From: a virus | Lineage: Duplodnaviria > Caudoviricetes | Reading direction: 5' to 3' (one strand) | IMG/VR virus record: IMGVR_UViG_3300027779_000040 | Span: 1-52,197 of that record | DNA length: 52,197 nucleotides | Shown here: positions 2,639 to 36,704 of the stretch, one piece after another | Layout: every line of letters starts with the position of its first letter | Position numbering within the stretch: the first letter of the stretch is position 1 | Translations under genes and position numbers: made by a program | The notes under the pieces: generated by a model | Told to the model about the DNA's origin: nothing | What the model saw: the letters and a program-made list of their open reading frames with translations, nothing else | Databases searched by the model: none

Positions 2639-3145
2639 ATGGGATTCTTTCAAAACATGTTGCAGGGTGCAAGAACTGGTATGGACAGAATGAGGATTGG
2701 TGGTGACGAACAATTCCAATCTGCACCTGAACCCGGTCAGTACTCTGGTTCACAACAAATAGACGCAATGCAAAAAGCCATAGGCTCTAAGGGAATTGGA
2801 GACGAAGGTGGTTTTAACAGGGCTTCTAATGACGAGGTAATGAACCTTCAAAGAGGACTTAAGGAAAAGGGACTCTATAAAGGTGAGCTTGATGGGATAT
2901 TTGGTCCCAAATCATTATCGGCTTTAAGACGTTTCCAGTCTGCTCGAGGAGAAACTTCTCCAGAGTATGACCAACAGATGGACCAAAGCACTCAGAGACC
3001 AATGGGTCAACAAGTAGCTCAAGCGGCTGACTTAGATAATAGCGGTGACTTAGGATGGGGTGACGTTTCAGAGGGATTTGGACGTATGGGAAGTTATCTC
3101 AAAGATAAGGGTTCACAATTTATGGATTATCAAAGGGGCGGTTAG
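2639..3145 (+). CDS. Peptidoglycan-binding domain protein
   Basis: DEVMNLQRGLKEKGLYKGELDGIFGPKSLSALRRFQ is the PG_binding_1 signature; AAGGAG RBS. Confidence 0.85.
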   Translation: MGFFQNMLQGARTGMDRMRIGGDEQFQSAPEPGQYSGSQQIDAMQKAIGSKGIGDEGGFNRASNDEVMNLQRGLKEKGLYKGELDGIFGPKSLSALRRFQSARGETSPEYDQQMDQSTQRPMGQQVAQAADLDNSGDLGWGDVSEGFGRMGSYLKDKGSQFMDYQRGG

Positions 3146-3154
3146 GAGTAGACT

Positions 3155-18800: not shown

Positions 18801-21800
18801 TTCTTTCCTTACAAGAACATTTCCGTAACAAGTTTAACAATATGACTGGTCGTGGCATGAACAAGCTTGTTAGAACGATGTTTAATAAAAACATTAATGA
18901 CATGAACTTAGCTGACTGGCGTACTATGGATAACATACTATCAGAGATTGATGGTGGTCAGTGGTGGAGAAAAACTTTGAAGTATGTAGATGACAATCAA
19001 TTCCTACCATCTATGACCCCGTTTCATCATCACATTTTTCCTGAAGCTACTAACAAAGACTTGATGAGAAAAGAAATCATCCTAGTCGCTAAGCGTGGTA
19101 TCTATAAAGATAAGCATGGCAATGTATTAACTGGTGATACTGCTCAGCCAACACAGATAGGTGAGATTTTACAACAGTTCATAAACATGAATAAAGAATG
19201 GGCTACTGGTGTACACGAGCAACGAAAGAATGAAATTAGTTCGGAGCTTTCTCCTTACTTAGAGTCTATTGAACAAGGACCTACACTATGGAGAATAGCT
19301 GTTAGGAGAATGGAGCAAGGAATGACATGGCATCTCAGAGAAAAATATCAGAATGATGCTACTTGGGCTCTTTTAAAAGAAACATATGAGAAACCTTGGA
19401 GAGACATACAAAAGAAACACGATTGGGAAAATCTACAGAAAGAAACATTCCAAGTAATTACAGCAAACGGCTCCAAGACGATGACTGGGCTTGATGTTGT
19501 TGAGAAAATTACAGATACTATAGAAATATGGAATAAGAAAAATCATAAGCTTATCCGTGGTGACGTAGAAGTAATTGACAGTTACCTTAATATGATAGGG
19601 AGAAGTTATCATTCAGACTCTAAGTCTAAATCGCTATGGAAAAACCCTGAGAATTTTATAAACGATAAAGAAAATCTGCCAAACTTTAGAGTTGAAGACC
19701 CTAATGAATCTAAATACCTTTCTGATGTATTTAAGAAGACATTCTGGTGGGGTGTTAAATCTGAAGGTGGAAAATCTGAAGCAGAGATAAAGAAAGCACA
19801 GGGTGAGTATCAAAAATTATACAATCAATATAAACAAGAGAAGTATATAGCTAATATTCGTGGTCTAGCGGCTGTACTTGATTATCGTCATCAGTTAAAA
19901 TTTGCTGAGGGTAAGGAAGATGTCCAAAACTCTAGAAAAAGAATGATGAATAGACTATTCAAAGATATTCTTGAAGCTAATGATAAGGGTGAAGTATTTC
20001 ATCAGAATTTAGGAATAGATGGTCTTCGCATATTATCAAGAGAGATTATGTTAGCACAGGTTAGAGACCCTAAGGATAGGGAACAAATAGCTAACTCTAT
20101 GTCAGTACATACTACTGGCTCATACCCATCAAGGATATACTTTCCACACTTGATGTTTGATAGGAAAATAGCTGAAGCACAAATGGAGAAAGCTCTTGAA
20201 GTCATATGGGCTGACCCTAGTAAAGATATTAAGGATAAGAACAGGGAGATGGATAGAATAATCTTCCACACTAGACAAATGACTGGTGATTGGATTCCAC
20301 AGACTGATGTATCAGACCAATGGCAAGCATTGAATGAAGGACTACAGAGGATAGGAGAGAAGAAAAAGAATAGAATTCCTAGAGAACATATGAATTGGTT
20401 CAAGACACATAAACGTGCAGGTAATCAGTACTCTAGAAACTCTCATATACCCGGTTGGAATATTGAGTTTGAAGCATACGTTCAGTACATGAAGAACCTT
20501 ACGGATGTACACTATCAATTAATAAGTCAGTTGATGTCTCGTACTTCTATGATAAGATGGAAAGAACGGATGGCTGAAAGGTTTGAACATCCAGATACAA
20601 AACAAGTTAAGAAGGAAGACCAGCAATTAATTAATAGATGGGAAAACTTTTTCAATCTATATATCACTCAATCTATGGGCTTACCTTCACAGATACCTGA
20701 GCATGTCCTTAATGACCCCGGCATGAAAATTAAAGGGACTCCTTATGCTTGGTTCGCTGACAGTGAAGTTAAGAAAAGATTAAATAAAATAGCAAAAAAA
20801 CTGGGACTAGATAAGAATATTATAAAAGAAAAGTTTCCAGAGGTTGCGGCAGAATATCCAGAGATGGCAGAGAAATTTGACTTTGCTGACCTACAAAGAT
20901 TCAGTGCTTTAGAGGCTAAATTAGAATTAGCGGCTCTACTAGCTCACCCTAAATCATCCGTTACAAACTTGTTTGGTGGTACGGTAAACACATTAATATC
21001 AACTGGTTGGCAACACTTTAAAAATGCTCGTGATGTAGAGTATCTTATGAAGAATGTTAACTCAAAGTTTACAAAGAAACAGGACTGGGAGGATTGGGTC
21101 ATCAAGCTTGGTGTAGTAGAGGAGTTCTTACTTTATGAAGCAGGGATTAATCCAAAGTTTAAGACTGGTAAGTGGAAGAACTTTATGGATGATGCTATGG
21201 CTAGGTTGAGTAAAGACCCTGAAATGGCTGATACAACCTTAACATCCCTTGCTAGTAAGCATGGAATAACTGAGTCTGTATTTTCTAAAGCGGCTTGGTT
21301 CATGAGAAGACCTGAACGTACACTACGGCGTGACGCTTTTTTAGCTCACTATCTACAGGCTAGAGAGAAATTTGGTGGTGCTTTCCAAAAGTTTGACAAC
21401 CCTATACTTATACAGATGGCTAAGAAGGGTGTGAAAGGTACACAATTCTTATATAGTGCACCATTTAGACCGCCTTTTTCAGCAAGTTCCGCTGGTAAGG
21501 TGTTCACTAGGTTTCAGACTTGGGCTTGGAACTCTGTCAGATTTAGAAGAGAAATTATAGAAGAAGCTGATGCTCGTGGATGGCAAAAAGGTTCTGTTGA
21601 GTTCGAGAGGTATAAACGTATGGCTACTGCTGACTTATTCATGCTTGGTATGGCTAATATATTCTTGTACTCTATCTTTGATAACGCACTACCAGCTCCT
21701 TGGAATTGGATACAAGACACAGCTGACTCATTGTATGGTGATGAAAGAGAAAGAGAGAGGGCTTTCTTTGGTCACCCACTCGGTCCTGTTCAAATTATTA

Positions 21801-22102
21801 CACCGCCTGTCTTACGTTTATTACCAGAGATGTTTAAAGCTATGATTGAGGATGATTACTCTAAACTAGCAGGTTATACTATTCCAAGTTACTTCCCTTT
21901 TGGAAGAGTGGCGAGAGACTTGGTTGGTCCCGGTGGTTTATATGAGAATCCTTATAGAGGAGTAGAAAAACTTACTGGTTTCCCTTACATGCAAGCGGCT
22001 AGAGAGTTCGGAGCATACCGTGAAAAAGAAGGTAGATACCCTAGAGGAATATTAGATTTAATTTATCAGCCATTCGAAAGAGATAAAGAACCTTCTGACT
22101 AA
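12824..22102 (+). CDS. Giant virion-associated single-subunit two-barrel (double-psi beta-barrel) RNA polymerase
   Basis: 3092 aa; catalytic GGADLDGD (DLDGD aa 1308-1312, nt 16745-16759) preceded by MRVP; upstream TDG...GKYMIH...SGLK motifs; located in the ejection module. Confidence 0.85.
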   Translation: MSTGSYYPEEIEGEHFKPFVDEGTIKGLIQHYKNDPKPFSEDKLKTLELHAQHYKLPFARSDADQHGRVSGILQQAGAGFWSGFTTFNVGEEPRDEWEGIARSIGHLAGFVGFIPSIPKKILATLPKASKLRTMSMALAKVKGQSVPMLGAKLVQDKVAPIANKAFAQAMAMRGAATADAAGFLNQGLVKDLIGGAFHLGVASSISSWQYGIDEMMRSFIGGAETGFVFRGIGNVVQTGSKAADASIRMVASSAYTGLPATMRGATTPEQVYEYLLGAYFGLKEMPYHKRDAQKLIGKAFKEGKAGQPIELMPEFGEMDSTTKKNTIEMAEKIWGEVSAAGGATPITGNIMSYELMNKFGFNIEEAEKIAKEYIERGGTLKDIEPFLDKPITDNGELRKSQRGSQEDLDMEVSTDSSSYMSVQQKLVNYIQNTLGYKYTEMKPREQQDAVLEDAMGLQKTWLEILKKQRVEIADNDFKDVSPAGATNKMLEHLAENLGVAPTEADWNFWRNREIQSLQLSNQPVISASIDFNGALNVYQLNPERPMNLAGNMKYVKQEPLSMEDAYGRAYTREGYDPAELRGGAIHQFLDHAVVQDSYTGKTKDMSLLRLKQHFFGEQMRRVGEVDEQTGTEFQYTDATAKAEKAFNNFLYGVMDAQWNRKESKGGAPNQMYYFGGRGDAERLYFVKVHPTVANIRTISEGRLKSLTNEINKVSAKIGNIEVTESGKTRNVKLKDIFNSEWALFQTTVNKGKTGEFKKRGNEMFASAFLSNIMYELDMNGFEMKKGIRPSEIKKFYATIGDSKNDFIDTAKAFNKRAQIWLNTGVSQNKDMIIPALQAAGWDDKTTAEGKAKVLIINDRKMADEVGVMAKNLEEGTDGALFMTSEYMLATNIDMGLPNEGHSNKSFIVSPNKRKGAMLGKYMIHEADPEMAKWMRKEKVHIIAYKSGLKQRGTRKSSDVYYKPHGKGYEFSDGWKDSVHRINMADIKTVITEKTDNHFLHPQKIPKQMQSLLTEFSFNPVKPEIIDDFFNTTSRERFFGNRVINEEAEAYLANPSKEAKESLIRNLDEIGIPTVLKMLKNPKTSEFAVEAYRKMLSKEQEVANAEFSEGEIEKATFEMQNDTRQEYRSAHDTIMNLSSDKSLAASMHKSVKHYRSNVIRNYLLNQVTRPTIKNSFISRMRPYTPWMWEQRGKYGPTAKLNETGGDKLFFLDNGFKELPLKSHVFGGKVSGRLGEMKLGEAWESYVDGKFDKFPKLKAEMEDVLEAVLMRVPMDSMSGARVLNFAGFTGVDGLGVLLHPRVMRALGGADLDGDKAWGFFGGKSESGAGEGMKKSWKNMYKDQELEYGEVGTSAKKLIDPVTGKPYYEEFLDDRDPLAKDRIENPGLRWSPMARMTASLGAAQGRNMLGPAVVNKAVISAAFSELMSRPNQSYSYTYESFNGEKRKILMTARSDPKDIKRQREMGKVSIHLPADPMDEAGLKDMNSFFSLMADSAFKYKDVTDPNRHFELSNDPKSREWMGDHSTKRAGLNQHFSKINQVLYGRNWAEERRWTPGEIHSGLSSSWDSLHQGEKQGGLYKNLAKLFHNLDWTEGIFFRVNETKLRELYKNFHKEWENNRELQDILQRTGRSVWNNEKEKFNPLLEFVLTRKLHDEKVLKSYLLDTKQNEKLFDAFPQYTERKGYNPRNLRQRERILRDMVHKAEDFVVNDLSDMVSMRFIRKFMEPIMARNNAKGEKISKEKIILGLHHMSEDIKSQSYFKGIDRKNESGLQGNEFELTASQREFFKLMGLEREVEQKDSAMLDQFQIDAKISTLKLNMTDPEKRLFDAFLLGTLKKGTQTEINKATEHAKQTYVNEEKFPPQVLEALEILRQKGAKTATSNLGFVSSSVSKGMKRAFWKEYEKLFDSSTNFFSKKETNDIKKDALKGEAELSKEEPRSILDKEGNVIKGTALEEATFDVETQTYLEEAHPFKGILSSKALKGPKFKLKGEAMEIVLSLQEHFRNKFNNMTGRGMNKLVRTMFNKNINDMNLADWRTMDNILSEIDGGQWWRKTLKYVDDNQFLPSMTPFHHHIFPEATNKDLMRKEIILVAKRGIYKDKHGNVLTGDTAQPTQIGEILQQFINMNKEWATGVHEQRKNEISSELSPYLESIEQGPTLWRIAVRRMEQGMTWHLREKYQNDATWALLKETYEKPWRDIQKKHDWENLQKETFQVITANGSKTMTGLDVVEKITDTIEIWNKKNHKLIRGDVEVIDSYLNMIGRSYHSDSKSKSLWKNPENFINDKENLPNFRVEDPNESKYLSDVFKKTFWWGVKSEGGKSEAEIKKAQGEYQKLYNQYKQEKYIANIRGLAAVLDYRHQLKFAEGKEDVQNSRKRMMNRLFKDILEANDKGEVFHQNLGIDGLRILSREIMLAQVRDPKDREQIANSMSVHTTGSYPSRIYFPHLMFDRKIAEAQMEKALEVIWADPSKDIKDKNREMDRIIFHTRQMTGDWIPQTDVSDQWQALNEGLQRIGEKKKNRIPREHMNWFKTHKRAGNQYSRNSHIPGWNIEFEAYVQYMKNLTDVHYQLISQLMSRTSMIRWKERMAERFEHPDTKQVKKEDQQLINRWENFFNLYITQSMGLPSQIPEHVLNDPGMKIKGTPYAWFADSEVKKRLNKIAKKLGLDKNIIKEKFPEVAAEYPEMAEKFDFADLQRFSALEAKLELAALLAHPKSSVTNLFGGTVNTLISTGWQHFKNARDVEYLMKNVNSKFTKKQDWEDWVIKLGVVEEFLLYEAGINPKFKTGKWKNFMDDAMARLSKDPEMADTTLTSLASKHGITESVFSKAAWFMRRPERTLRRDAFLAHYLQAREKFGGAFQKFDNPILIQMAKKGVKGTQFLYSAPFRPPFSASSAGKVFTRFQTWAWNSVRFRREIIEEADARGWQKGSVEFERYKRMATADLFMLGMANIFLYSIFDNALPAPWNWIQDTADSLYGDERERERAFFGHPLGPVQIITPPVLRLLPEMFKAMIEDDYSKLAGYTIPSYFPFGRVARDLVGPGGLYENPYRGVEKLTGFPYMQAAREFGAYREKEGRYPRGILDLIYQPFERDKEPSD

Positions 22103-26457: not shown

Positions 26458-27087
26458 TTAACAATGATAATCTATTACGGTTAACCATACGGTGCTCTTA
26501 TGAATCTCACTTTCCAAGTCACTCCATTTCTGAATACCTTCCCAAGAATCTATATCAATAAAATCTTCTTCACCAGCATACTGGTTTTTCTTGAATAGAT
26601 TTTTGAATAGATTCTCAGTTAACTCCATAGAGTCATCTGGGTATCCGAAATTTGCGTATGTATCTCTTACCCAAGGATGCGGTGTTTCACCACCTAAGTC
26701 ACTTTGCCAGAATAGGTTTAATTCTGTTTTAAGGGATTCAATGAATGAAGTAGATATCATCTTCTTACTTTCAAATAAGTCCCAGTCACTTTTATTGACT
26801 TTTCCTTCAGGTATGTCTTTGTCTTTGAATTGAGAACATAAACCATTAAAATCTGTTCCTAATTCCTTTTGTGATAGTTCACCAGACCATCTGCCACCAA
26901 TGACAAACCAGTCTGCTGGACCTGTACTCCACCTTCCTTCTTGTCCACAGAAGTTTTCTTGTTGTAATGAATTAAATACCCATTCGTTTATTAACATTCC
27001 TTTGGGTTTATCTAATTCCGCATCATCTTCATGCCATTCAGGCGGATGTTGCTCTGCTCGTGACACGACTATCAGGCGTTGGTGCAT
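26458..27087 (-). CDS. Conserved-type phage hypothetical protein
   Basis: DWFVIGGRWSGEL...WLTVIDYH; AGGAG RBS. Confidence 0.7.
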   Translation of the reverse strand: MHQRLIVVSRAEQHPPEWHEDDAELDKPKGMLINEWVFNSLQQENFCGQEGRWSTGPADWFVIGGRWSGELSQKELGTDFNGLCSQFKDKDIPEGKVNKSDWDLFESKKMISTSFIESLKTELNLFWQSDLGGETPHPWVRDTYANFGYPDDSMELTENLFKNLFKKNQYAGEEDFIDIDSWEGIQKWSDLESEIHKSTVWLTVIDYHC

Positions 27088-28864
27088 AATCTGCTCTCCT
27101 TAGTCTAAATGATGGAGTCCAATTCAGCTCTACATCGCTAAATAACTCACCATCACTGTTTTTAAATAATGTTAAAGACTTTGTAGTCTCATCTGCTTTT
27201 CCCGTTATACCAATAACTTTTCTTGATGCATTTTCTATTGCACCAGAACCTTTACCAGCGTACAAATCCATAATCTGATTCCGAGAATATTCTCTACTAA
27301 TCTGACTAATCTGAATTATAATAATATCCTGATTAACAGCAAGATTACTTAAACTATGGCTTACAAATCTAACAGTTTCGTATTCTCCACGAATATGCTT
27401 TGGTGGTTCGATTAAATCAATATAATCTACCACTACTGCACTGGGTTGGTGGTCACGAATAGAATCTTTAATTTGTGCTATAGTTGGACTAACGGTTTGA
27501 TATATAATATGAGATAAATCTTGTTTATAATGCTCATACAACATATCAAAGTTTGCAGTGACAAAATCCTTGTCTTTTCCACTTACAATTTGTAATGCTC
27601 TTCTGTGCATATACCAACCAGATAACTCCAAAGAAAGAAACAATGTAGGGATTTGCCACTCTCTACGAATGATATCTTCTGTGGCATCATAACCTAATAC
27701 GAGATTATGTGCGAAAGTTGTCTTGTTGGAACCTGTTGCACCAAATATAGTAACTAATTCACCGGGATAAATCTTACTTTCTTGTTTTACTCCAAGAACT
27801 CTCCCTAAATCAATTACTCTTCCAGAAAAATCTGTTTCTAATCTTTCTTTTAGAATTTTCTGTAGGTCATCTGATGTGTACAGGTCTATAAGATAGTCTT
27901 TTCTATCATAGAATACACAGTATTGTTTGCAATGTGCGGTCATAATATGGTCTTTACAACTATATTTGTAACCAGCATTGTAAGTTGATTCTACTTTTTC
28001 AAGAATGACATTTTCATCTAATTGTCCGTTATTCCATTCTAAAAGTGCGGCTTTAGTAGCGGCTGATGGAATCCCGTTCCTTCTAAAATGAGATGCTATT
28101 CTTAATAAAGTATTGTTTCTTGTACCTTCAACTGGTCCATCATCATACATTTCCTGTACGCATGGAACTACCTTTCTAGGTTCTGTTACAGCCCTTATTT
28201 CTCTAATCTTAGGAATATCTGTAACAATAGATTTCTCAAGTTCTCCTTCAGCATAAAGTTCATTGAATACAAAATCAAGTCTCCTTTCTTTTGATATTTC
28301 TCTAATTTCTCCAGCTTGTAAAGTGTTGAGTTCCTTAACTGTAAAAGGAGTCTTGTAAAGAGCACTTTTTTGGTTTAAAGTGTGTACTAAACGATAAATA
28401 GCAGTTCTTTGATATACGCTTAAGTCAATTTTCTTGCCAAATAACCCTTTCATTGTCTCTTTAACAATAAATGGTAAGTCATCTCCAGCTTGAAAATTAA
28501 AAACTTCATTTGTTAGATGGATATGATATCCAGTTCCACTAAAATAAGGCTGTATAGCATTATAAGGAACTTCAACTTGTTCTAGTTCGTAAATGATAGC
28601 TTGAGCACATTTAAGAGTATAAGCATCAGTGTTCTGACCCTTATCTATATCAATAACAACTTCATCAATACTTCTGGAACCAAAGTAATTTTTAACACTT
28701 CCAGTTTTATTTACAAAGTCTTTACCACTGTCATCGTAAACATACATACTACGATAAACTGCTTTATCTTTGCCTTCGTCAAGGATGTAATAACTTAAAT
28801 CCTCTAACGGAATAAAAAGTCCCCGTTTCCGAGGACTTCCTATTGCAAGTTCAACCCAATTCAC
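27038..28864 (-). CDS. AEP primase - DnaB-like (SF4) helicase fusion
   Basis: AEP motifs DID, FSGTGYH, DLSVY...YRL; PriCT-like GTRNN; helicase GATGSNKT, FLSLE, VVVDYIDL, ISQISR, GSGAIE. Confidence 0.88.
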   Translation of the reverse strand: MNWVELAIGSPRKRGLFIPLEDLSYYILDEGKDKAVYRSMYVYDDSGKDFVNKTGSVKNYFGSRSIDEVVIDIDKGQNTDAYTLKCAQAIIYELEQVEVPYNAIQPYFSGTGYHIHLTNEVFNFQAGDDLPFIVKETMKGLFGKKIDLSVYQRTAIYRLVHTLNQKSALYKTPFTVKELNTLQAGEIREISKERRLDFVFNELYAEGELEKSIVTDIPKIREIRAVTEPRKVVPCVQEMYDDGPVEGTRNNTLLRIASHFRRNGIPSAATKAALLEWNNGQLDENVILEKVESTYNAGYKYSCKDHIMTAHCKQYCVFYDRKDYLIDLYTSDDLQKILKERLETDFSGRVIDLGRVLGVKQESKIYPGELVTIFGATGSNKTTFAHNLVLGYDATEDIIRREWQIPTLFLSLELSGWYMHRRALQIVSGKDKDFVTANFDMLYEHYKQDLSHIIYQTVSPTIAQIKDSIRDHQPSAVVVDYIDLIEPPKHIRGEYETVRFVSHSLSNLAVNQDIIIIQISQISREYSRNQIMDLYAGKGSGAIENASRKVIGITGKADETTKSLTLFKNSDGELFSDVELNWTPSFRLRRADYAPTPDSRVTSRATSA

Positions 28865-28866
28865 AC

Positions 28867-29466
28867 CTAAAAATTAGATTGTGACCATGGTTCTGAATTT
28901 GTGTTGTCGTGTGCTTTAACAACTTCTCCAGCAACATGCTCTTTAATGTAACCTTTTCCTTTCATAAAGTTGACATAGCCTTCCAATTCAGTCTTTCCGT
29001 CTTCATCGTTACGATAAATACGTCCAGCACATTCATTAAAGGCTTTACCTTCTCTCTGATTGAACTTTTCATAGATGTAAATAAGGTTATTCATCTGTGG
29101 CTCTTCAGGAGCTTGAGGAGAATACTTATCATTAAGATATACAGCGATATCAGGTATAGGTCTGTCATTTATTTCCCAATCACCCACTGCATTTACCCCA
29201 GCTTCATCGCCTAAGACTTCCATAAGATTATATATCTTCCTTAGAAGAGTGTTATCTTTGATAGTGCCATTAGGATTCTTGTCAAAAGAACCTGCGATTT
29301 TAAAGTCCTGAGGATATTTGCTATTCTCTAACTTTAGATTCACTTTTAAATACATCGGTGCCCAATCATAGGTACCAGATTTATCTTCAAATGAATCTAT
29401 TCCACAAACTTGATAGCCAAGCCAACTTGCCCCACTTGTTGTTGCTTCTGGTTTAAACAGTGGCAT
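28867..29466 (-). CDS. Putative ssDNA-binding protein
   Basis: Sits between AAA ATPase and primase-helicase; beta-rich with a disordered tail ending in F. Confidence 0.55.
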   Translation of the reverse strand: MPLFKPEATTSGASWLGYQVCGIDSFEDKSGTYDWAPMYLKVNLKLENSKYPQDFKIAGSFDKNPNGTIKDNTLLRKIYNLMEVLGDEAGVNAVGDWEINDRPIPDIAVYLNDKYSPQAPEEPQMNNLIYIYEKFNQREGKAFNECAGRIYRNDEDGKTELEGYVNFMKGKGYIKEHVAGEVVKAHDNTNSEPWSQSNF

Positions 29467-30343
29467 TAACTTTCTCCTTTTCTTTTGTGTTGTAGTTTAG
29501 TATTTCTTCCTTTATTGTTTCGTAATTGAAACGTAAGGTTTTATTTGCAAGAGGTTTAAGCCTACTTCCAACAGTTCGCTCATCATAAGACAAAAATGAT
29601 ATCCATTTGTCATCTGAATCTTTAGTACCAGTTGTATAACCAATAACATCTGCTTTTGCTGTTAGTGCATAGCCTAATCCCCTTGGTAAGTCAGGTGATA
29701 ACTGCACCTTTCCATCATTGATAGCAGATTGCTTAGAATGACTTATAATAATAAGATTCCCACCTTTCTGCTTAATCAAATTTTGAAATTGTTTAATTAT
29801 ATCAAGGTGTTTTCTACGAGCCTTACCCCAATCTGCTCCCCACTGTCCTTGACCCATAACATCAATACCGAGTTCGTCCGTAACAATATCTTCAATCCAC
29901 TTGTTAACTTCGTCTACTGTATCAATAACTATGGTATCATATGGCAAAGAATCCCAGTTGTTCTTCAATTCAAGAAAAACTTCTATTAATGAAATTGCTT
30001 CACAAGGCTGACCTTTCTTGTCGCCACTTCGATGATATAATCCACGTTCAATATTGGGGATTACTTCATACTTGGTGTTACCTTTTTTATCTTTGACTTC
30101 TATGCCATCTAACATTACTTTACGATAAGGGGGGTTTAATGATGTACAAAATACTACATTAGCCTTATCAACAAAGTCTCCACCCAAATCAGTGTCTATA
30201 AGTAAGACACCATCTGAGCCTTTTTCACTCCACGAAGCTGAATTAGTAGACTTGCCCGATTTGGGCTGACCAATAAAATAATAGGTCAACCCAGCAGGCA
30301 TACTTTTCCAGTCGGTGGAGATTTTATGAACAGGTAAGCTCAT
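29453..30343 (-). CDS. AAA_24/Sak4-like P-loop ATPase (recombination/annealing)
   Basis: GQPKSGKST Walker A, TIVIDTVD Walker B, G..WG, IIISHSK, ADVIGY. Confidence 0.85.
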   Translation of the reverse strand: MSLPVHKISTDWKSMPAGLTYYFIGQPKSGKSTNSASWSEKGSDGVLLIDTDLGGDFVDKANVVFCTSLNPPYRKVMLDGIEVKDKKGNTKYEVIPNIERGLYHRSGDKKGQPCEAISLIEVFLELKNNWDSLPYDTIVIDTVDEVNKWIEDIVTDELGIDVMGQGQWGADWGKARRKHLDIIKQFQNLIKQKGGNLIIISHSKQSAINDGKVQLSPDLPRGLGYALTAKADVIGYTTGTKDSDDKWISFLSYDERTVGSRLKPLANKTLRFNYETIKEEILNYNTKEKEKVNATV

Positions 30344-31017
30344 ATTTTATCTCCTTCGTTGTTAATTTTAGGGATTACTAAGGTTTGTTTATCTACCGAG
30401 AGAGGCGATAATCCAGCCCAAATATATGAAAAATAAGGACGATTTGCAACCAGTTTAAACACCTTACCCATACCTAAACTTGCTACCAAAGAGGCAGTAA
30501 ATATAGTATGTTTAGCGGTGCAAGGTTCAGCAATATCAGTACTTGGAGGATTCCATGTGTCTATGAAATCATCATTCTCTTTCGTTACTGTTATCACTTC
30601 CATTGACAATGCTCCCATACGCATATCAATCAACCATTCACGGTTCTTCATCCCAAGCCAAGTCCTATAAACATCAAGTCTTGTATCCATATTATCTGGT
30701 CCCATCATTACACATGGCTCCAGTTCTTTTCCCATTTCAAAGCGTTCTTCTTTAAAATCACCATCCGAACCATATTCATTAGCCGTATGGAGTGCACATT
30801 CTGCCTTACTTAAACCAAGATACTTTATTGGGTAAGATGTTGTAGACAAATTATGTTCAGAAAGCTTATCATGGTCATATCCATGTATGAAATTAAAACC
30901 CATTAGTGAACAAAGCTGGACAAGGGAGGAACCAATCCCCCCTAATCCAATTATAGAAACAGATTCTAATTTTTCCTGAGGTATTAAGTCAGAATTTCTT
31001 AAAAATCTATTTTCCAT
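30340..31017 (-). CDS. ThiF/E1-like ubiquitin-like-protein activating enzyme
   Basis: Start reassigned to ATG 31017 (GGAG RBS); RFLRN, IIGLGGIGS, YDHDKLSEHNL, G.SK, GPDN..TR, candidate catalytic Cys in EPC(166)TAK. Confidence 0.9.
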   Translation of the reverse strand: MENRFLRNSDLIPQEKLESVSIIGLGGIGSSLVQLCSLMGFNFIHGYDHDKLSEHNLSTTSYPIKYLGLSKAECALHTANEYGSDGDFKEERFEMGKELEPCVMMGPDNMDTRLDVYRTWLGMKNREWLIDMRMGALSMEVITVTKENDDFIDTWNPPSTDIAEPCTAKHTIFTASLVASLGMGKVFKLVANRPYFSYIWAGLSPLSVDKQTLVIPKINNEGDKI

Positions 31018-31924
31018 TACTAAGTTCTCCATGTTCTTTAACGTCAATTTGGTTAATATTGAAATAATGCCATGGCTCAAGACCCATTTTGTTCATTTCA
31101 ATCTTAAAATGATACCAATTAATAGTTCCTAATTGGAATTCTTCCCCAATCGCCATTACTTCTTCCACTTCTGCTTTTGTTAAAGACTCTACTATTGCTA
31201 TTGCATCTTCTTCAAAACCATAAGACATGCCAGAACCATAACCTACTCCATAAGGCGTGTCGTATTCGGTTGAAAGCGCTGGATTGGGTTTTGCTAAAGG
31301 GAGATTAGTCTGGTTTTTATCAACAACCGAAGTTATCGGAGTATGAACTTTACCATAACCATTCAAAGAATTGTGTCCACCCCAACTAAAAGTAGTCTTG
31401 GCTTCTTTTTCAATCTTCTCAGCAATCTCCTTCCATTCTGGTACTACTTTTACACCATTAGCTACAATGATATCTTCTTTATCCAGCTTATAGAGTGATT
31501 TCTTCTTGTATTGGTCGAGATAAGAAAACGCAAAAGCATATTTCTCCTTTGTACTCGCTACTACTAAACTACAGTAAAAGTTTTCTTCAGGAGCCATGTC
31601 TTCTAATGTCCCTTCATCTGTTCCACTAAAGAATGCACCCATAGTATGATGTGAATGAATTAATCCTATGCAACATTTCTTCAATTTAGGATGCTTTTGA
31701 TAAGACTCTCTTATTATTTTAGCAAAGTCTTGTGCGTCCCAATCTGTAGCCGTTCCATGACCTAAATCCAATGGATGAAAATGAAGAAGGCTAAAAGTCG
31801 TTGGAAAACCATCTTCATCTTTGTTAATTTGATACCATGCTGGTCCAGACCATTCCTTAGAAGGAAACTCGCCCAGAAAGTACTGTATCTTGTTGTTTAT
31901 CGTTTTTGAAAGTGTCAATATCAC
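31007..31924 (-). CDS. JAB/JAMM (MPN+) metallo-isopeptidase
   Basis: E24(EWSG)...H90-S-H92-x7-S100-x2-D103; GTG start with AAGGAG RBS. Confidence 0.9.
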   Translation of the reverse strand: MILTLSKTINNKIQYFLGEFPSKEWSGPAWYQINKDEDGFPTTFSLLHFHPLDLGHGTATDWDAQDFAKIIRESYQKHPKLKKCCIGLIHSHHTMGAFFSGTDEGTLEDMAPEENFYCSLVVASTKEKYAFAFSYLDQYKKKSLYKLDKEDIIVANGVKVVPEWKEIAEKIEKEAKTTFSWGGHNSLNGYGKVHTPITSVVDKNQTNLPLAKPNPALSTEYDTPYGVGYGSGMSYGFEEDAIAIVESLTKAEVEEVMAIGEEFQLGTINWYHFKIEMNKMGLEPWHYFNINQIDVKEHGELSNGK

Positions 31925-33491
31925 CTTGTATCTCCTTTATGTAATGTGTTAAACTTGCTACTTTGTTTTCTCCACATGCTATTTTGCATGCAGACATTGC
32001 TGATTCAATCCATTCTATGTTATATGCGTCTGGACCTAAAGGATTATCCCCTTCAGCCTTATCTTCATTGTAACCTTGAAACATTTCATCCCATTCTTCT
32101 ACTGAACGTGGAAAAATTGTTTCCCATAGTCGAGTCATTATTTCAAATTTACAAGCATCTACCAAATAACCATCGTTCCTTTCATGGTACCTTTTTCTTA
32201 CTTCAGTAATGATAGTATGAAGTAAATAACCATCGGTTTCTGTTAGCATTTTAAAGAACGCTATGCGGAATCGAGTTGCAGGATGGTAATTGTCTTTATG
32301 GTGAGGATATCGGCTTGGTTCAGGATATAGAAAAGAAGCAAAAGCATTTCTGTATCTTTTCATTTTACCTAAAACCCATTGCATAGTCTGTCTACCATCT
32401 TTTCGTGTAGAACGTTTGATATCAGAATGACTTTCATGATACATAGTTATATCCGAATCTAATTCTGCAATTCTGTAACCATACTCTTCCCAACCTCTGT
32501 TGCAAAGTAAATCCATTCTTTTTGCAAGAGCCATATATTTAGCGGCACCTTCAAAAGTAATAGATTTTTCTCCATTTACAGCATCGAAAGTCCCATAAGT
32601 AGCCCTTCCACGAGAATTAAAACATTGCATAGCACGATTGCATAGATATAAAGTTGAAAAGCATACCTTTAAAATAAAAATAAGGTCTGTTTCCGTTTTA
32701 CATTTTTCTGCTAACATTGGTAGAATCTCTCTAAATTCTTCAAATTCAGTAGTACTACCCACCATGTGTCCCAATTTATCCATCTGTACGCCTGATAAGA
32801 TTATTTTATTATTCAAATCTTTCAAGGGCTTAAACCGATTCATGTTAAAGTAGGCTGAGTGTCTGTTCCAAGTAAAGAGAAAACTCTTTATTAATGTAAA
32901 ATACTGTAGAACATTGCCCTGTGCCGCACTCTTATACATCATGTTATCGAATGCTCCTAAACATGGTTCTGTATTAGTTATATGAGGATGACGAGCATCT
33001 CTCCACCATAAATCTGGTTTTGTTTTTGCTCTGTCAGGATTAACATAACCAAAATGATTTAATTCAAGATTCTCAAATCGTAATCGGGGGACACAGCTTG
33101 AGTCACTACCTTTTGTTAATATGCAATAAATAGTTCCAAAATTCTGGACACTTGTTCCCCTTAACTTCACATTGTCAAATTGTATTATCATATATGACCT
33201 TGATATAGGATGAGGGTAGTTTGGATTAAAATACTTACCATTATTTGAATCACCACTAACTTTCCAGTGAACAATATTGAAATGTTTAGTAATCAATTCA
33301 AACTCTTGCATACGTTTGGTTCCATCAAGTGTCTTGAAAGATGGAAAGCATTCTAAGAATACTCGTAATAATTTTGCTTTTGAAAGCACTACTGGTGAAT
33401 CACGAGCATCTTGGTTTACTCCGTAATTACCCATATGAAGAGGATTCCAATGTTCCATCGGACTCTTCTTAAACACCTGTTTTAAATTCAT
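31857..33491 (-). CDS. E2/UBC-like conjugating domain protein with long helical C-terminus
   Basis: H168PHITNTEPC177LG followed by VLQYFTLIKSFLFTWNRHSAY, matching UBC HPN(I)...CL and its following helix; flanked by Ubl and JAB genes. Confidence 0.72.
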   Translation of the reverse strand: MNLKQVFKKSPMEHWNPLHMGNYGVNQDARDSPVVLSKAKLLRVFLECFPSFKTLDGTKRMQEFELITKHFNIVHWKVSGDSNNGKYFNPNYPHPISRSYMIIQFDNVKLRGTSVQNFGTIYCILTKGSDSSCVPRLRFENLELNHFGYVNPDRAKTKPDLWWRDARHPHITNTEPCLGAFDNMMYKSAAQGNVLQYFTLIKSFLFTWNRHSAYFNMNRFKPLKDLNNKIILSGVQMDKLGHMVGSTTEFEEFREILPMLAEKCKTETDLIFILKVCFSTLYLCNRAMQCFNSRGRATYGTFDAVNGEKSITFEGAAKYMALAKRMDLLCNRGWEEYGYRIAELDSDITMYHESHSDIKRSTRKDGRQTMQWVLGKMKRYRNAFASFLYPEPSRYPHHKDNYHPATRFRIAFFKMLTETDGYLLHTIITEVRKRYHERNDGYLVDACKFEIMTRLWETIFPRSVEEWDEMFQGYNEDKAEGDNPLGPDAYNIEWIESAMSACKIACGENKVASLTHYIKEIQGDIDTFKNDKQQDTVLSGRVSF

Positions 33492-33509
33492 AATTCACTC
33501 CTGTGATAT

Positions 33510-33611
33510 ATCAAACAAGCCCCTTAACTAACTGCCAAGTCTTCCAGACTAATTAAATTAGTTTGAAATTAGTTTCAGAGGCTCATTTGATTGGTTCGTC
33601 TCTTACGAGAC
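33510..33611 (-). promoter_or_regulatory. Structured intergenic RNA between Ubl and E2 genes
   Basis: gtctc-GTAA-gagac hairpin plus 15-bp stem atcaaatgagcctct/aggggcttgtttgat with G-U pairs on the minus strand. Confidence 0.6.
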
Positions 33612-33622
33612 TGATTTAAAAA

Positions 33623-33886
33623 CTATGCACCTTTTGCAAGGTTTACAGCTTTTCCTGAAAGTACAACATCAATAGATGTCGCACCCGACTCCACTTTGGA
33701 CTTCTGGAAAGAGACATAATCTCCATCCCGAAGGTCTTGTGTGGCGGTGGCTTCGCTTTCATTCACGAAGATTTTAACGCCATCCAAGGACAAGTCCCAA
33801 GTTTGAGCAATGGATGCCGGTGTATTCGACTCCATTTCATGCACCGTACCACCTGAATGATACGATATTGCAAAGATATTAGCCAT
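33623..33886 (-). CDS. Ubiquitin-like (beta-grasp, ThiS/MoaD-like) protein with C-terminal extension
   Basis: 87 aa; IFVNESEA....DLRDGDYVSF....VESG68 fits the ThiS/MoaD pattern VN...L.DGD.V.f...V.GG; AGGAG RBS; first gene of the E2-JAB-E1 cluster. Confidence 0.8.
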   Translation of the reverse strand: MANIFAISYHSGGTVHEMESNTPASIAQTWDLSLDGVKIFVNESEATATQDLRDGDYVSFQKSKVESGATSIDVVLSGKAVNLAKGA

Positions 33887-33897
33887 GGACTAACTCC

Positions 33898-34116
33898 TTA
33901 ACTCTTCAGGGTTTCGTGGTTATCCCGTATCGTTAACCATTTCTCTACTGAACCCTGATTGTCAGTAGTATGGTTTTTAGTGCGTATAATAACGAACTTA
34001 GACACAGGTCTTTTTTTCCGACAGATAGCTAATATAAAATCAGCACTTCTTTGAGTAGAATAGATGCCTATTAACATCTTCTGTCCTTTGAATTTCTCAC
34101 ATAACATCCAATTCAC
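33898..34116 (-). CDS. Hypothetical basic protein
   Basis: GTGA-coupled to the upstream gene. Confidence 0.6.
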   Translation of the reverse strand: MNWMLCEKFKGQKMLIGIYSTQRSADFILAICRKKRPVSKFVIIRTKNHTTDNQGSVEKWLTIRDNHETLKS

Positions 34117-34304
34117 CAGTCTATCTCACTGTCGAGATTTTCATCTAACTCTATAGCCTTGTGAAAATAAGGAGTCATTCTAAGAAGACCGTTTAATTCA
34201 ACGGATTTTTCTCGGTAAAACTCCAGTTTATTTAAGATGTGTACATGCTCTCTTAGCAGGAAAACATAACCTATTAAGAGTACTACAATGATGTATATCT
34301 CCAT
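34113..34304 (-). CDS. Small membrane-anchored protein
   Basis: N-terminal TM IYIIVVLLIGYVFLL; AAGGAG RBS. Confidence 0.7.
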   Translation of the reverse strand: MEIYIIVVLLIGYVFLLREHVHILNKLEFYREKSVELNGLLRMTPYFHKAIELDENLDSEIDW

Positions 34305-34332
34305 GACATACTCCTTGTGTTGTTAAGAAAAT

Positions 34333-34659
34333 CTTTGTGGGTAGTCAGACTAACCACTTGAAATATAAAAATGCTGACCTACTGATTTTCACAGCTCTTA
34401 CTTGTAGTATATCTACTATGGCAAAAGCCAGCATTTTTGATCGGTTTAATAAAGAGAGGTCTGACCTTTTTCACAAGTCTAATGCACATATCTTGCTACT
34501 CTATTATCAAACTGGGTAAAGGTTTTCAGGAATCAGAATCCGGCTTTCCGGCTACTTTAAAAAGAGCCATGTCACGCAGTCGGTATATTACTGCTGGCTT
34601 TACCCAATTCCTGAAAGTAGGATAGTATTTCTACTGTTCCTATGTAACAGACAAGTGCA
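34333..34659 (-). ncRNA. Candidate ~330-nt two-domain structured non-coding RNA
   Basis: Multiple long stems, a GAAA tetraloop, G-U pairs read on the minus strand, interleaved 10-bp and 9-bp helices; occupies a gene-free gap. Confidence 0.65.
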
Positions 34660-34667
34660 GAGGGAAT

Positions 34668-34898
34668 CTATTGATTGTCGTGCTGATTATCCGTTACATT
34701 ACATTTTTCACATTCTAATCTTTCCAATCCAATAGTAGGAAAGTCTTCATAATACATGACGGGATGACCCAGTGTGTAGTCTATTTCCCATACAAGATTA
34801 CATGTCTTGCAATACTTCAAGCGTTTGGATACACCTTTATTCTTTTCCTTATCCATGCTCTTACGGCTATCCCCACCAAGAAATTGTTCATATCTCAT
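34668..34898 (-). CDS. Zinc-finger-like hypothetical protein
   Basis: CKTC..VWE...Y.DFPT.G..R..CEKC. Confidence 0.7.
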   Translation of the reverse strand: MRYEQFLGGDSRKSMDKEKNKGVSKRLKYCKTCNLVWEIDYTLGHPVMYYEDFPTIGLERLECEKCNVTDNQHDNQ

Positions 34899-35104
34899 TT
34901 CTCAAACTCCAATGATTGCTCTATTTGTGCATCAGCTACTTCATCAATTTCACGCTCTATTTGTTGAGCACGAGAGACCATTTCTTCAAGTGTAACACCT
35001 GTCTTAATGAAATACTCAGTGGTGCTAACACCGAGTACATCATCCAGATATTCACGAATTTCATCAATATTAATTCGTTTCTGAGACCTATTCCAGTCTA
35101 CCAT
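34895..35104 (-). CDS. Hypothetical protein
   Basis: Overlap-coupled within the leftward operon. Confidence 0.65.
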   Translation of the reverse strand: MVDWNRSQKRINIDEIREYLDDVLGVSTTEYFIKTGVTLEEMVSRAQQIEREIDEVADAQIEQSLEFEK

Positions 35105-35325
35105 TCTAATTCAGGCTCATCTACTATTTCAAGCAGACCTTCTTCAAGAAAAGCATCCATATCCCTGTCAAACTCATACTTTCTACGAGCCGTTCTTCTT
35201 TGACGGGCATTACCTGTAAACTTAGGCATAGTGACCGCTTTGCTATCAACAGAAATTACTGATACTTTCGTTGGGACATATTTCAGTACCAACCTTTTTA
35301 CTAAATTAAGGATGTATTTCAACAT
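35098..35325 (-). CDS. Hypothetical protein
   Basis: AAGGAG RBS; contains GNARQRRTARRK. Confidence 0.65.
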   Translation of the reverse strand: MLKYILNLVKRLVLKYVPTKVSVISVDSKAVTMPKFTGNARQRRTARRKYEFDRDMDAFLEEGLLEIVDEPELEW

Positions 35326-35327
35326 TC

Positions 35328-35495
35328 TTATTCTCCTTCTATTTGTATGCGAAGTTTATGTTCCGCACGGGTTCTTGAGTAATTAGTAGTCCAAATAGCA
35401 TGAACAACACTGTTCACCATAAATGTCCACCAATAATGTTTAATCATTCTATCATTAGGTACTACCTTACGCACACTAATTAAAGAATATTTCAT
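35328..35495 (-). CDS. Small hypothetical protein (55 aa, not in ORF track)
   Basis: MKYSLISVRKVVPNDRMIKHYWWTFMVNSVVHAIWTTNYSRTRAEHKLRIQIEGE; abuts the next gene. Confidence 0.5.
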   Translation of the reverse strand: MKYSLISVRKVVPNDRMIKHYWWTFMVNSVVHAIWTTNYSRTRAEHKLRIQIEGE

Positions 35496-35525
35496 CGTTA
35501 ACCTGTTCCTTTGGAGTCATAACCA

Positions 35526-35591
35526 AAGATACCGATTGGACTGGCGTTCTTTATAAGCAACATTACTTGCTCACCAGCCAACCGACATCTT
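35526..35591 (-). promoter_or_regulatory. Long intergenic RNA hairpin
   Basis: Minus strand aagatgtcggttggctgg...ccagtccaatcggtatctt, 18 bp with 3 G-U pairs and an internal hairpin. Confidence 0.65.
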
Positions 35592-35727
35592 AACCACATT
35601 TATCATCCCATAGATTGTATGTTATGTTAATTTCGCATGGATGTATTACTCCTGTTATTAACCACTAAAAAAGATATAACAACACTAACGGATAATGCTT
35701 GCGCATGAGTTCCGTGTAATAAAATAA

Positions 35728-35776
35728 CCCCTACCCAACCCACCCATGAATAAACATAGGCAGGTTAGTGTAGGAA
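35728..35776 (-). promoter_or_regulatory. Long intergenic RNA hairpin
   Basis: Minus strand cctacactaacctgcctatg-tttatt-catgggtgggttgggtagg, ~19 bp with several G-U pairs. Confidence 0.65.
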
Positions 35777-35788
35777 GATTAGACAGTC

Positions 35789-36223
35789 TTATGCTGTAGC
35801 GACTTTGTCAGTTTTGGCGTGTTCAACCAATACGATGTCCAAAGCATTCGCAAGTCCTTTAGATGTAGAACTGATAGTCCCAGAATCCTGTTGGAACTTC
35901 ACGCTTGTCATCTTATGGCGTTCGAACCTTCCAGTCTTTTTAGAGTCGTAGCCTGTTACATCTTTCTCGGTTACAGAGAGAGTATAACTGCATACATGAC
36001 CAGAAGGTAACGTTACAACCCAATTATAGACTTTATCAGCCATGTTAAGCTTAAACCATTCGAATACGGACATCTCTACTCCTTCTTCATCTTTGATGAC
36101 AGAGTCGATATTGAGTATAGAGAAGTAGGTCATACCCCACTCATTTATACCTGAACGCAGTTGAATGTCTATACCTAATACGGTGCAGATAGACATAAGA
36201 TTGTCAATTAGTGCTTGTTTCAT
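35789..36223 (-). CDS. Hypothetical protein, first gene of the leftward arm
   Basis: AAGGAGTG RBS; 144 aa. Confidence 0.75.
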   Translation of the reverse strand: MKQALIDNLMSICTVLGIDIQLRSGINEWGMTYFSILNIDSVIKDEEGVEMSVFEWFKLNMADKVYNWVVTLPSGHVCSYTLSVTEKDVTGYDSKKTGRFERHKMTSVKFQQDSGTISSTSKGLANALDIVLVEHAKTDKVATA

Positions 36224-36300
36224 TTATTCACTCCTTAAGTGATTATGGTTATTAGCAATCTCATCATTATATGATACCACATAACAACGAGAGATAGGCA

Positions 36301-36422
36301 GGGGCTGTGGTGTTGCAAGAGTAACCCCAAGATTTTAACCGAGCAAACGGGATTTCAACGTAAACAGATAGGCGGAAGGGTAAAATCGGGGGGTACTCGC
36401 AACTTGTATATCATGCTCCCCC
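36301..36422 (+). repeat. Long imperfect inverted repeat in the divergence region
   Basis: ggggctgtggtgttgcaagagtaaccccaagattttaacc ... gggtaaaatcggggggtactcgcaacttgtatatcatgctcccc. Confidence 0.7.
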
Positions 36423-36577
36423 ACTATATAGTATTTTTTTGAAAATGGGCTATCCAGTCGCCATATTACAAGGTATTTCTCGGTTATAATCGCCAAATAA
36501 CATACTTTTTGAGGGAGTATACCTTTCTTTGAGGATGAAGTATTCTAGCCTAATGTGCACCTGTTGGAAAAAAAGTC

Positions 36578-36607
36578 TTGACTTGCGGTGTCTATGTATA
36601 GTACTAT
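36578..36607 (+). promoter_or_regulatory. Possible sigma70-like rightward promoter
   Basis: TTGACT-18 bp-TACTAT upstream of the rightward arm; overlaps palindrome tatagtactata. Confidence 0.35.
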
Positions 36608-36704
36608 AGAGCTCGTTATGGAGCTGTAATACTAACAATTAACCATCAAGTTTTCCTTTCTTAATAAGAGCTCTACCCCTGTATAATTTTAATTTTTTTC
36701 TATA

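Follow-up and report, generated by a model that had tools for sequence, protein, structure and literature searches.

Prokaryotic ubiquitin-like (Ubl) conjugation has so far been characterised as a cellular activity and mostly as an anti-phage one, with Bil and the type II cyclic oligonucleotide-based antiphage signalling system (CBASS) as examples. The parts list of prokaryotic Ubl operons is defined in the available text of Iyer et al. (2006; PMC1779556), while the available text of PMC11601596 describes Bil as mediating the conjugation of Ubl to proteins and the known bacterial Ubl systems as anti-phage. We describe here a set of four genes that answers to this parts list and is carried by a phage. 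It lies on the minus strand of the IMG/VR virus record IMGVR_UViG_3300027779_000040, all 52,197 bp of which were analysed (hereafter, the window; CheckV completeness 100%), and encodes in order a Ubl precursor, an E2-like protein, a JAB peptidase and a ThiF-type E1. In so far as models are a guide, four generic features of a Ubl/E1/E2/JAB operon are found here, namely a beta-grasp protein with a C-terminal Gly, a ThiF-fold E1, a UBC-fold E2-like protein and a JAB with a JAMM site. We consider it likely, from the sequences, that the cassette is a phage-encoded Ubl conjugation cascade expressed with the replication genes and working without a separate E3. A literature search, with subscription papers and supplements outside it, returned no phage-encoded Ubl/E1/E2/JAB cassette and no link between crAss-like phages and ThiF or ubiquitin; a term search of the available text of the Bil preprints (10.1101/2023.09.04.556158, PMC10557695) found no passage on phage-encoded homologues. 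The parts of the cassette are as follows.

33623..33886, minus strand: Ubl precursor, 87 aa, with the beta-grasp at residues 1-62, a flexible K62-S-K-V-E-S-G68 and a 19-aa tail
33492..33622, minus strand: structured spacer between the Ubl and E2 genes, with a short hairpin at 33598-33611 and a long one at 33510-33591, then a Shine-Dalgarno-like AGGAG
31857..33491, minus strand: E2-like protein, 544 aa, for which a structure model was made
32757..33401, minus strand: UBC-like domain of the E2-like protein (residues 31-245), with H168-P169-H170 at 32982-32990 and C177 at 32961-32963
31857..32756, minus strand: C-terminal helical domain of the E2-like protein (residues 246-544; modelled helices 247-530), a candidate target-binding part
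31857..31924, minus strand: 68-nt overlap of the E2 gene's 3' end with the JAB gene's 5' end, coding in both frames
31007..31924, minus strand: JAB/JAMM metallopeptidase, 305 aa, with a catalytic domain at about residues 1-165 and a C-terminal part of ~140 residues
30340..31080, minus strand: ThiF-type E1, 246 aa from a TTG start (230 or 225 aa from ATG 31032 or 31017)
27038..30343, minus strand: downstream neighbours identified by PHROG/Pfam matches, namely a Sak4-like ATPase (29453-30343), a 199-aa protein (28867-29466) and a primase-helicase (27038-28864)

Bil resembles the cassette in keeping its four kinds of parts (BilA, the Ubl; BilB, the E2; BilC, the JAB; BilD, the E1) as separate genes. 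Bil, however, defends cells against phages, whereas the cassette belongs to a phage and lies within a replication module. The Bil E1 is a large tandem-domain protein according to the available text of PMC11601596; the E1 here is a single ThiF domain of 225-246 aa. The E2 enzymes of class 6d, which is that of Bil, are described in the accessible part of PMC1779556 as lacking the classical His and having a His after the Cys, whereas here an HPH motif precedes the Cys. The single-domain E1 and the invariant HPH ahead of C177 rule out membership of Bil. The cassette also appears to differ from Bub (6E/DUF6527), which the same available text of PMC11601596 describes as composed of fused BubAB and BubCD proteins; the E2-like family has no Pfam match, and hence none to DUF6527 if it is listed there under that name. 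With Cap2/Cap3 of CBASS and with the 6A-MBL systems the cassette shares E1 chemistry, an E2-like Cys and a JAB eraser, and the E1 gave weak matches to the PADLOC E1-E2 families (E at least 5.9e-5) and to the NCBIfam 6A-MBL cap2_3 families, all confined to the Rossmann part. CBASS has no free Ubl, and its Cap2, a fused E2-E1 enzyme, acts on the C-terminus of a CD-NTase. Here, by contrast, the enzymes are encoded by separate genes and there is a dedicated Ubl, and a Pfam scan of 62 open reading frames (ORFs) of the window returned no CD-NTase family; separate genes and the want of a CD-NTase rule out type II CBASS. PRTRC was excluded on scores far below cut-off (PRTRC_A 15 bits against 101.8; PRTRC_ThiF 24.7 against 144.75) and by the lack of any ParB family in the window, and the ThiS/ThiF and MoaD/MoeB pairs on the best ThiF equivalog score (30.6 bits against 159), the S-G terminus of the Ubl and the lack of any sulfur-transfer family in the window. 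Sequence similarity to parts of Bil, Cap2 or Cap3 was confined to the generic ThiF fold.

By the sequence of its E1 and its single-Gly modifier, the cassette most resembles a minimal UBA5/UFM1-like pathway. UBA5, the E1 of the pathway that also comprises UFC1 and UFM1, is the closest relative of the phage E1 among solved sequences and is itself a minimal single-domain E1. UFM1 ends in a single Gly that is exposed by removal of a very short tail, its E1 carries the Cys after the adenylation core, and its processing enzyme is a Cys protease. The likeness has its limits: the processing enzyme here would be a JAB, there is no E3, and neither the Ubl nor the E2-like protein has a detectable sequence relation to UFM1 or UFC1.

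Results

A preliminary description of this DNA, prepared from its letters, had proposed four co-oriented genes with the signature motifs of a Ubl conjugation system, the last three overlapping one another, in the replication arm of a phage. All four minus-strand ORFs are confirmed at the coordinates listed above, every motif cited is found in the translations, and the cassette does adjoin the genes for the primase-helicase and the Sak4-like ATPase. The overlaps are also real, with 68 nt between the E2 and JAB genes; that between the JAB and E1 genes is 74 nt from the TTG start and only 11 nt from ATG 31017.

It had further proposed a synteny search in IMG/VR. A 15-sequence sub-alignment of the E2-like family recovered 56 IMG/VR loci, which together with the window and two crAss loci make 59 sources; the parts were identified by iterated local profiles seeded with the window's four proteins and run on all ORFs. 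The longest of the related IMG/VR contigs are 43-55 kb. The E2-like protein was found in 57 sources, JAB and E1 in 54 each and the Ubl in 49, and all four occur in identical order and strand in 44 of the 59. Among the 15 incomplete sources, five end inside the E2 gene and seven begin at or within about 140 nt of its start; two more are the crAss loci, whose Ubl and E2 are not recognised by the profiles, and the last, L052, has room upstream of the E2 gene yet no recognisable Ubl. The four-gene arrangement exceeds what chance would give: 44 of 59 sources repeat the order, and proteins no more than 12-58% identical share invariant catalytic residues. The downstream neighbours are shared as well (Sak4-like ATPase in 42 loci, 199-aa protein in 46, primase-helicase in 43, a Gam-like protein in 23). 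The cassette is thus no one-off and belongs, as a conserved part, to the replication module that a whole phage clade shares.

The overlap of the E2 and JAB genes is itself a conserved trait. It is at least 30 nt long (38-122 nt, median 68 nt) in 51 of 52 loci, its length is 2 mod 3 with few exceptions, and conservation extends to both reading frames; the JAB residues encoded within it (L3, Y15, L17 and F20) are kept in more than 90% of homologues. Such an overlap could serve translational coupling. In other loci it lies at 4938-4999 (L061, crAss001), 4923-5047 (L060, Flavobacterium phage FpV4) and 5125-5186 (L066, a cellular locus considered below).

The 87-aa protein, which the preliminary description had taken for beta-grasp-like, models as such: an AlphaFold prediction from a 26-sequence alignment (predicted local distance difference test score, pLDDT, about 90 over residues 1-60) runs strand-strand-helix-strand-strand-strand before a disordered tail, and at E <= 0.001 Foldseek matched it to 32 PDB structures, with SUMO, the sulfur carrier TtuB, Mth1743 and Caldiarchaeum ubiquitin foremost. 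Sequence searches returned only three close homologues, one of which stops one residue past the conserved S-G. A local profile run on the 56 viral loci raised this to 49 copies, 33 of them distinct, and all 33 end in K-x-x-S-G followed by a tail of 0-19 residues. The tail is absent from three distinct sequences, is one residue long in 20 and 2-4 residues in eight, and reaches 12 residues in one and 19 in one, the latter being the window. Taken with the modelled fold, these features are the signature of a modifier with a reactive C-terminal glycine, which is often made as a precursor.

The E2-like protein is the weakest link of the cassette by sequence. It matches nothing in Pfam, NCBIfam, PHROG or PADLOC, no meaningful Pfam match was found among 46 of its relatives that were scanned, and neither the window protein nor two further family members gave a tblastn match in 50,697 GenBank phage records. 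A word-indexed search found four relatives; a profile run exhaustively against 1.84 billion representatives raised this to 51 at E <= 0.001. Within the family the proposed active site, HPHITNTEPCLGA (translated from 32952-32990, with the C177 codon at 32961-32963), stands out: H168, P169, H170, C177 and G179 (HPH-x6-C-x-G) are invariant in 49 of 49 aligned sequences, 12-58% identical, and W208 is nearly so, even in members that share as little as 12-20% of their residues with the window protein. C177 follows HPH by six residues and precedes a helix, as in UBC enzymes; it is a candidate catalytic Cys, and its invariance is typical of a catalytic site. The structure model (pLDDT 81.6; predicted template modelling score 0.77) places N-terminal helices before a sheet with strands at 72-77, 100-105, 121-126, 136-144 and 161-165, then the HPH loop, C177 directly before helix 180-190, more helices, and a separate all-helical domain at about 246-530, so that residues ~39-243 model as a UBC/E2-like fold around the site that had been proposed. 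A structure search other than Foldseek aligned residues ~31-245 to UBC enzymes in 26 of the best 50 matches, which included UBE2F, UbcH7, UBC12, Pex4, UbcH5, Ubc13, two UEV domains and BubCD. Among named ESM Atlas clusters the best three (score 0.87-0.88) are viral and carry Prok-E2_D in 14-39% of their members, which is to be read only as a lead, and in BFVD a single protein, viral, unnamed and 474 aa long, matched at E <= 0.001. The C-terminal helical domain has only generic helical fold matches; we infer that it is a candidate target-binding part.

The two remaining enzymes are more readily placed. The JAB peptidase scores 24.7 bits against Pfam Prok-JAB (E 2.2e-5), 0.3 under the cut-off of 25, and the site that had been read as an intact JAMM motif (E24, H90, H92, S100 and D103, in the form E...HxH-x7-S-x2-D) is invariant in 40 of 40 distinct homologues, those of crAss-like phages included. 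The E1 passes Pfam ThiF (39.7 bits against a cut-off of 28.1; E 4.1e-10), no NCBIfam equivalog passes its cut-off, and the best PDB sequences are those of UBA5 (E 5.6e-5, over the Rossmann part). Its motifs GLGGIG, D69-x-D71, N77, K92 and D129 are present in 41 of 41 homologues, and the candidate catalytic Cys first numbered C166, from ATG 31017, is C187 from the TTG and is kept in 40 of 41. More fully, G45-x-G47-G48-x-G50, D69, D71, N77, K92, D129, R134 and C187-x-x-K190-x-T192 are each kept in 40-41 of the 41 distinct homologues, and R28 of an N-terminal R-x-x-R-N motif in 39. There is no extra domain such as a ubiquitin-fold domain. Because the conserved part of the family begins at R28 and the homologues are 218-279 aa long, the true start is probably ATG 31032 or 31017.

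Relatives in other phages were sought by tblastn at E <= 0.001. The JAB found 74 GenBank phage records, the E1 seven of these and the E2-like protein none. The 74 comprise 29 Flavobacterium phages (FpV4 and Fpv3 among them), 29 Bacteroides phages (including crAss001, DAC15/17 and the PhiCrAssBcn series), 12 uncultured crAss-like genomes and four others; the hosts, where given, are Bacteroidota. In crAss001 (gp79-76), DAC15 (gp048-051) and FpV4 (gp53-50), homologues of JAB and E1 are found both by local profile (E 1e-32 to 1e-61) and by tblastn. The crAss001 genes run as follows.

gp79: 225 aa, the protein in the Ubl position, after primase gp80
gp78: 444 aa, the protein in the E2 position
gp77: annotated 'metalloprotease domain', overlapping gp78 by 62 nt
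gp76: annotated 'thiamine biosynthesis protein, ThiF'

The DAC15 and FpV4 genes are arranged in the same way, and in each phage the cassette lies 3' of a primase gene. These loci share with the window the gene order, the E2/JAB overlap (62 nt in crAss001, 125 nt in FpV4) and primase and Sak4-like neighbours. Their Ubl-position proteins differ from the window Ubl in being 225-289 aa long, with about 135-205 residues past a K-S-G, although the stretch at about residues 81-95, K-K-I-K-S-G in crAss001 and DAC15 and Q-V-K-S-G in FpV4, resembles K-S-K-V-E-S-G of the window. Their E2-position proteins have H-S-H, then a Cys 16-20 residues on, after a longer loop, and then L/T/I-G. Comparison of the window Ubl and E2 with these proteins gave an hhalign E of 0.002 at a probability of 13% and no local profile match; homology is suggested but only weakly supported. 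The window terminase finds its best matches, at 24-29% identity, in Bacillus, Campylobacter and Paenibacillus phages and by this measure is not crAss-like; because it is not, the cassette appears to be present in phage lineages that differ in their packaging genes.

The cassette also has cellular relatives. The 15-sequence sub-alignment found none in one-per-species prokaryote genomes, and a degenerate DNA pattern for HPHIS-x3-PCLG picked out 18 loci in the same kind of set. Sixteen of the 18 carry the domain, 14 of them with an adjoining ThiF E1. They come from metagenome-assembled genomes (MAGs) of Methylomirabilota, Ignavibacteriota, Thermodesulfobacteriota, a deltaproteobacterium, Chloroflexi, Thermomicrobia and a candidate phyla radiation bacterium, some on contigs of 125 kb to 1.1 Mb. 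Here the HPH-Cys domain is C-terminal in proteins of 385-732 aa, after a long helical region, and the small Ubl neighbour passes Pfam ThiS (31 and 32.7 bits against 22.5) and ends in G-G (with N-N added in Ignavibacteria). Between the two genes lies one for a JAB-like protein with E...HSH...S..D. Neither the E2-like nor the JAB-like cellular proteins match anything in Pfam, PADLOC or NCBIfam. On these sequences, the phage cassette is one branch of a wider, uncatalogued type of Ubl/E2/JAB/E1 operon. The MAG loci L072, L076, L066 and L065 lie at 3969-6704, 3048-6066, 3376-8082 and 3276-7039, respectively; at L076 (3048-6066) the E2-like and E1 genes are split into pieces. Genes for a VapE-like protein, a DNA ligase and RadC adjoin the Ignavibacteria copies, which suggests a mobile element, and downstream of the Thermodesulfobacteriota and deltaproteobacterial copies lies an HD/dGTPase-like gene.

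A spacer separates the Ubl gene from the E2 gene (median 106 nt in 49 loci). That of the window, at 33492-33622, has a minimum free energy of -42.7 kcal/mol (z -4.2), and none of 200 shuffles folds as well; 22 of 31 distinct spacers have z < -2 (median -3.1), and several resemble classical terminators with a GC stem and a U run. Many of the loci L004-L034 have a C-G-T-C-T-G-C-like motif in the first ~20 nt past the Ubl stop, ahead of the hairpin, where the window differs. Three metatranscriptome (RNA) libraries from three studies each yielded one contig, starting at 33521, 33523 or 33600, inside the spacer hairpins, and reaching 34293 or 34303, at a mean depth of 16-29. This contig spans two small ORFs (34113-34304 and 33898-34116) as well as the Ubl gene. 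For the enzyme genes, the contigs of these libraries are 2-6 deep, and the Ubl stretch is 3-10 times deeper, in a measure that cannot rank genes and in which stretches of the E2 gene not covered by RNA contigs are uninformative. A DNA run is flat across the region at depth 3-6 and bridges the spacer. The contigs give a weak hint of an abundant short Ubl transcript ending at the hairpins, and an excess of Ubl over enzymes would fit, again as a weak hint, a tag that is consumed. In 30000-36700 there is no excess of sigma-70 promoters (27 against 22.4 expected) or of simple terminators (2 against 3.7). Just upstream of the ends of the abundant RNA contigs lie 363 nt (34305-34667) with no convincing ORF on the coding strand and no Rfam match; they may be a promoter or regulatory region.

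The phage itself is a marine tailed phage. Its plus strand carries the genes for large terminase, portal and major head protein, and a replication arm on the minus strand at ~23-36 kb encodes the primase-helicase (PriCT and DnaB_C), the Sak4-like AAA_24 ATPase, a Gam-like protein and an HNH endonuclease. Among the 62 ORFs scanned, Pfam recognised no integrase, recombinase or DNA polymerase family, and the window has no tRNA, no Rfam family and no end repeats that we could find. A lytic lifestyle is plausible, because terminase, portal and major head protein are present and an integrase is absent from the scanned ORFs. Metagenome runs of several studies, described as marine, seawater or brine, contain near-identical DNA. 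Two giant ORFs (12824-22102, 3,092 aa; 4825-9507, 1,560 aa) take up more than a quarter of the genome without a PHROG or Pfam match, and a 556-aa protein (3155-4825) weakly matches a helicase PHROG and resembles Pretoxin-HINT towards its C-terminus (26.7 bits, under the cut-off of 27.7).

Discussion

The order of events in the cascade that we consider likely can be outlined from its parts. The Ubl is encoded as a precursor in which, as seen in sequence and model, the beta-grasp ends in K-V-E-S-G68 and carries a tail of 19 residues. JAB would remove this tail to expose G68, and may also cut conjugates later. The E1, whose active site is apparent, would adenylate G68 with ATP and Mg and probably pass it to C187, from which the Ubl would move to C177 of the E2-like protein, next to HPH, and on to a target; fold, motif and invariance are observed for this last enzyme and the chemistry is inferred. 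With no E3 gene present, the target would be chosen by the ~300-residue helical C-terminal domain of the E2-like protein. Finally, the hairpin or terminator might give more Ubl than enzyme message, as would suit a consumed tag. The constant position of the cassette beside the Sak4-like ATPase and the primase-helicase points to a target in replication or recombination, or to a host protein handled early in infection.

Several observations weigh against this interpretation. Not one of 49 E2-like family members matches an E2 family in Pfam (Prok-E2 A-E, UQ_con), even at E <= 10, and PDB sequences gave no match to the E2-like protein, whether as a single query or as a 49-sequence profile. The preliminary description had expected Foldseek to recover the folds from the models, which it did for the beta-grasp of the Ubl and did not for the whole 544-residue E2-like model: no PDB structure reached E <= 0.001, the matches were mainly helical proteins, and a RING-UbcH5c fusion, ranked seventh (E 0.24), was the one E2 among them. 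The Ubl ends in one Gly and not in Gly-Gly, and the E1 lacks the Arg of the N-x-x-R seen in MoeB- and UBA5-type enzymes, having N77-L-S-T where UBA5 has N-M-N-R. The contigs from the RNA libraries may come from DNA. Finally, because the 56 viral loci have neighbouring genes in common, they are best counted as one diverse phage clade and not as 56 independent associations or acquisitions.

It is unlikely, in our view, that the cassette is a sulfur-carrier pathway, in which a ThiS/MoaD/TtuB-type Ubl is adenylated by the E1 to form a thiocarboxylate that gives its sulfur to the modification of a nucleic acid or cofactor, and JAB only trims the precursor or releases an adduct, as in CysO/Mec-type systems. 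Such a pathway would suit a cassette placed among DNA-metabolism genes, a Ubl model that matches TtuB about as well as SUMO, bacterial relatives whose Ubls pass Pfam ThiS and end in G-G, and an E1 whose best NCBIfam matches are ThiS adenylyltransferases, if far below cut-off (30.6 against 159 bits). The phage Ubls, however, end in S-G and not G-G; the scan of 62 ORFs of the window gave neither a rhodanese, a cysteine desulfurase or a PP-loop ATPase nor any other sulfur-transfer family; and a UBC-like protein with an invariant Cys, needless for a sulfur relay, is present in 57 of 59 sources. We give less credence still to the idea that the 544-aa protein is a non-catalytic scaffold of UBC, UEV or RWD type and that the Ubl, once activated and trimmed, acts non-covalently. 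Its precedent is a Ubl and JAB pair proposed, in the available text of PMC1779556, to act in lambda and T1 tail assembly without conjugation, but the cassette is in the replication arm and not among tail genes, it includes an E1 with an intact ATP site, and neither C177 nor HPH varies in 49 sequences, both persisting in the bacterial relatives.

The remaining alternative concerns the target or purpose of the system. The Ubl might be attached to something other than a protein lysine (for example a lipid, a nucleotide, a DNA end or the E2-like protein itself), or it might be a counter-defence in which JAB strips the conjugates of host Bil or CBASS while the phage Ubl, E1 and E2 compete with those of the host. 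The anti-phage role of bacterial Ubl systems described in the accessible part of PMC11601596 makes a phage counter-measure plausible, no other part is as well conserved between phage lineages as JAB (74 records as against seven for E1 and none for the E2-like protein), and neither an E3 nor an obvious substrate gene accompanies the cassette. A pure deconjugase, on the other hand, would need no E1, E2-like protein or Ubl, yet these occur together in 44 of 45 sufficiently long loci, and the parts bear no sequence similarity to those of Bil, Cap2 or Cap3 beyond the generic ThiF fold. We therefore regard this explanation, too, as improbable.

Having preferred a conjugation cascade, we would go further only tentatively, to a proposal that is perhaps a little short of an even bet. 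On this proposal the cassette is an ancient, vertically kept and self-contained Ubl conjugation system, resident in the replication modules of several phage lineages, which infect Bacteroidota where the host is known and include the crAss-like phages. It would be built on an uncatalogued HPH-Cys branch of UBC proteins that brings its own target-recognition domain and so dispenses with an E3, and would tag a replication or recombination factor, or a host protein, thereby enabling phage DNA replication or disarming defence.

The crAss-like phages dominate the human gut virome, and crAss001, DAC15 and FpV4 are cultured, so that the prediction is directly testable. If it holds, it would provide a function for crAss-like genes now labelled 'hypothetical', 'metalloprotease' and 'thiamine biosynthesis', and a new E2 branch would enter the history of the ubiquitin system. 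This would also be the first case of a bacterial virus writing Ubl marks and not only suffering them, and a phage-borne set of writer and eraser, retained beside the replication genes in very divergent phages, would show that phages, too, put Ubl tagging to uses of their own.

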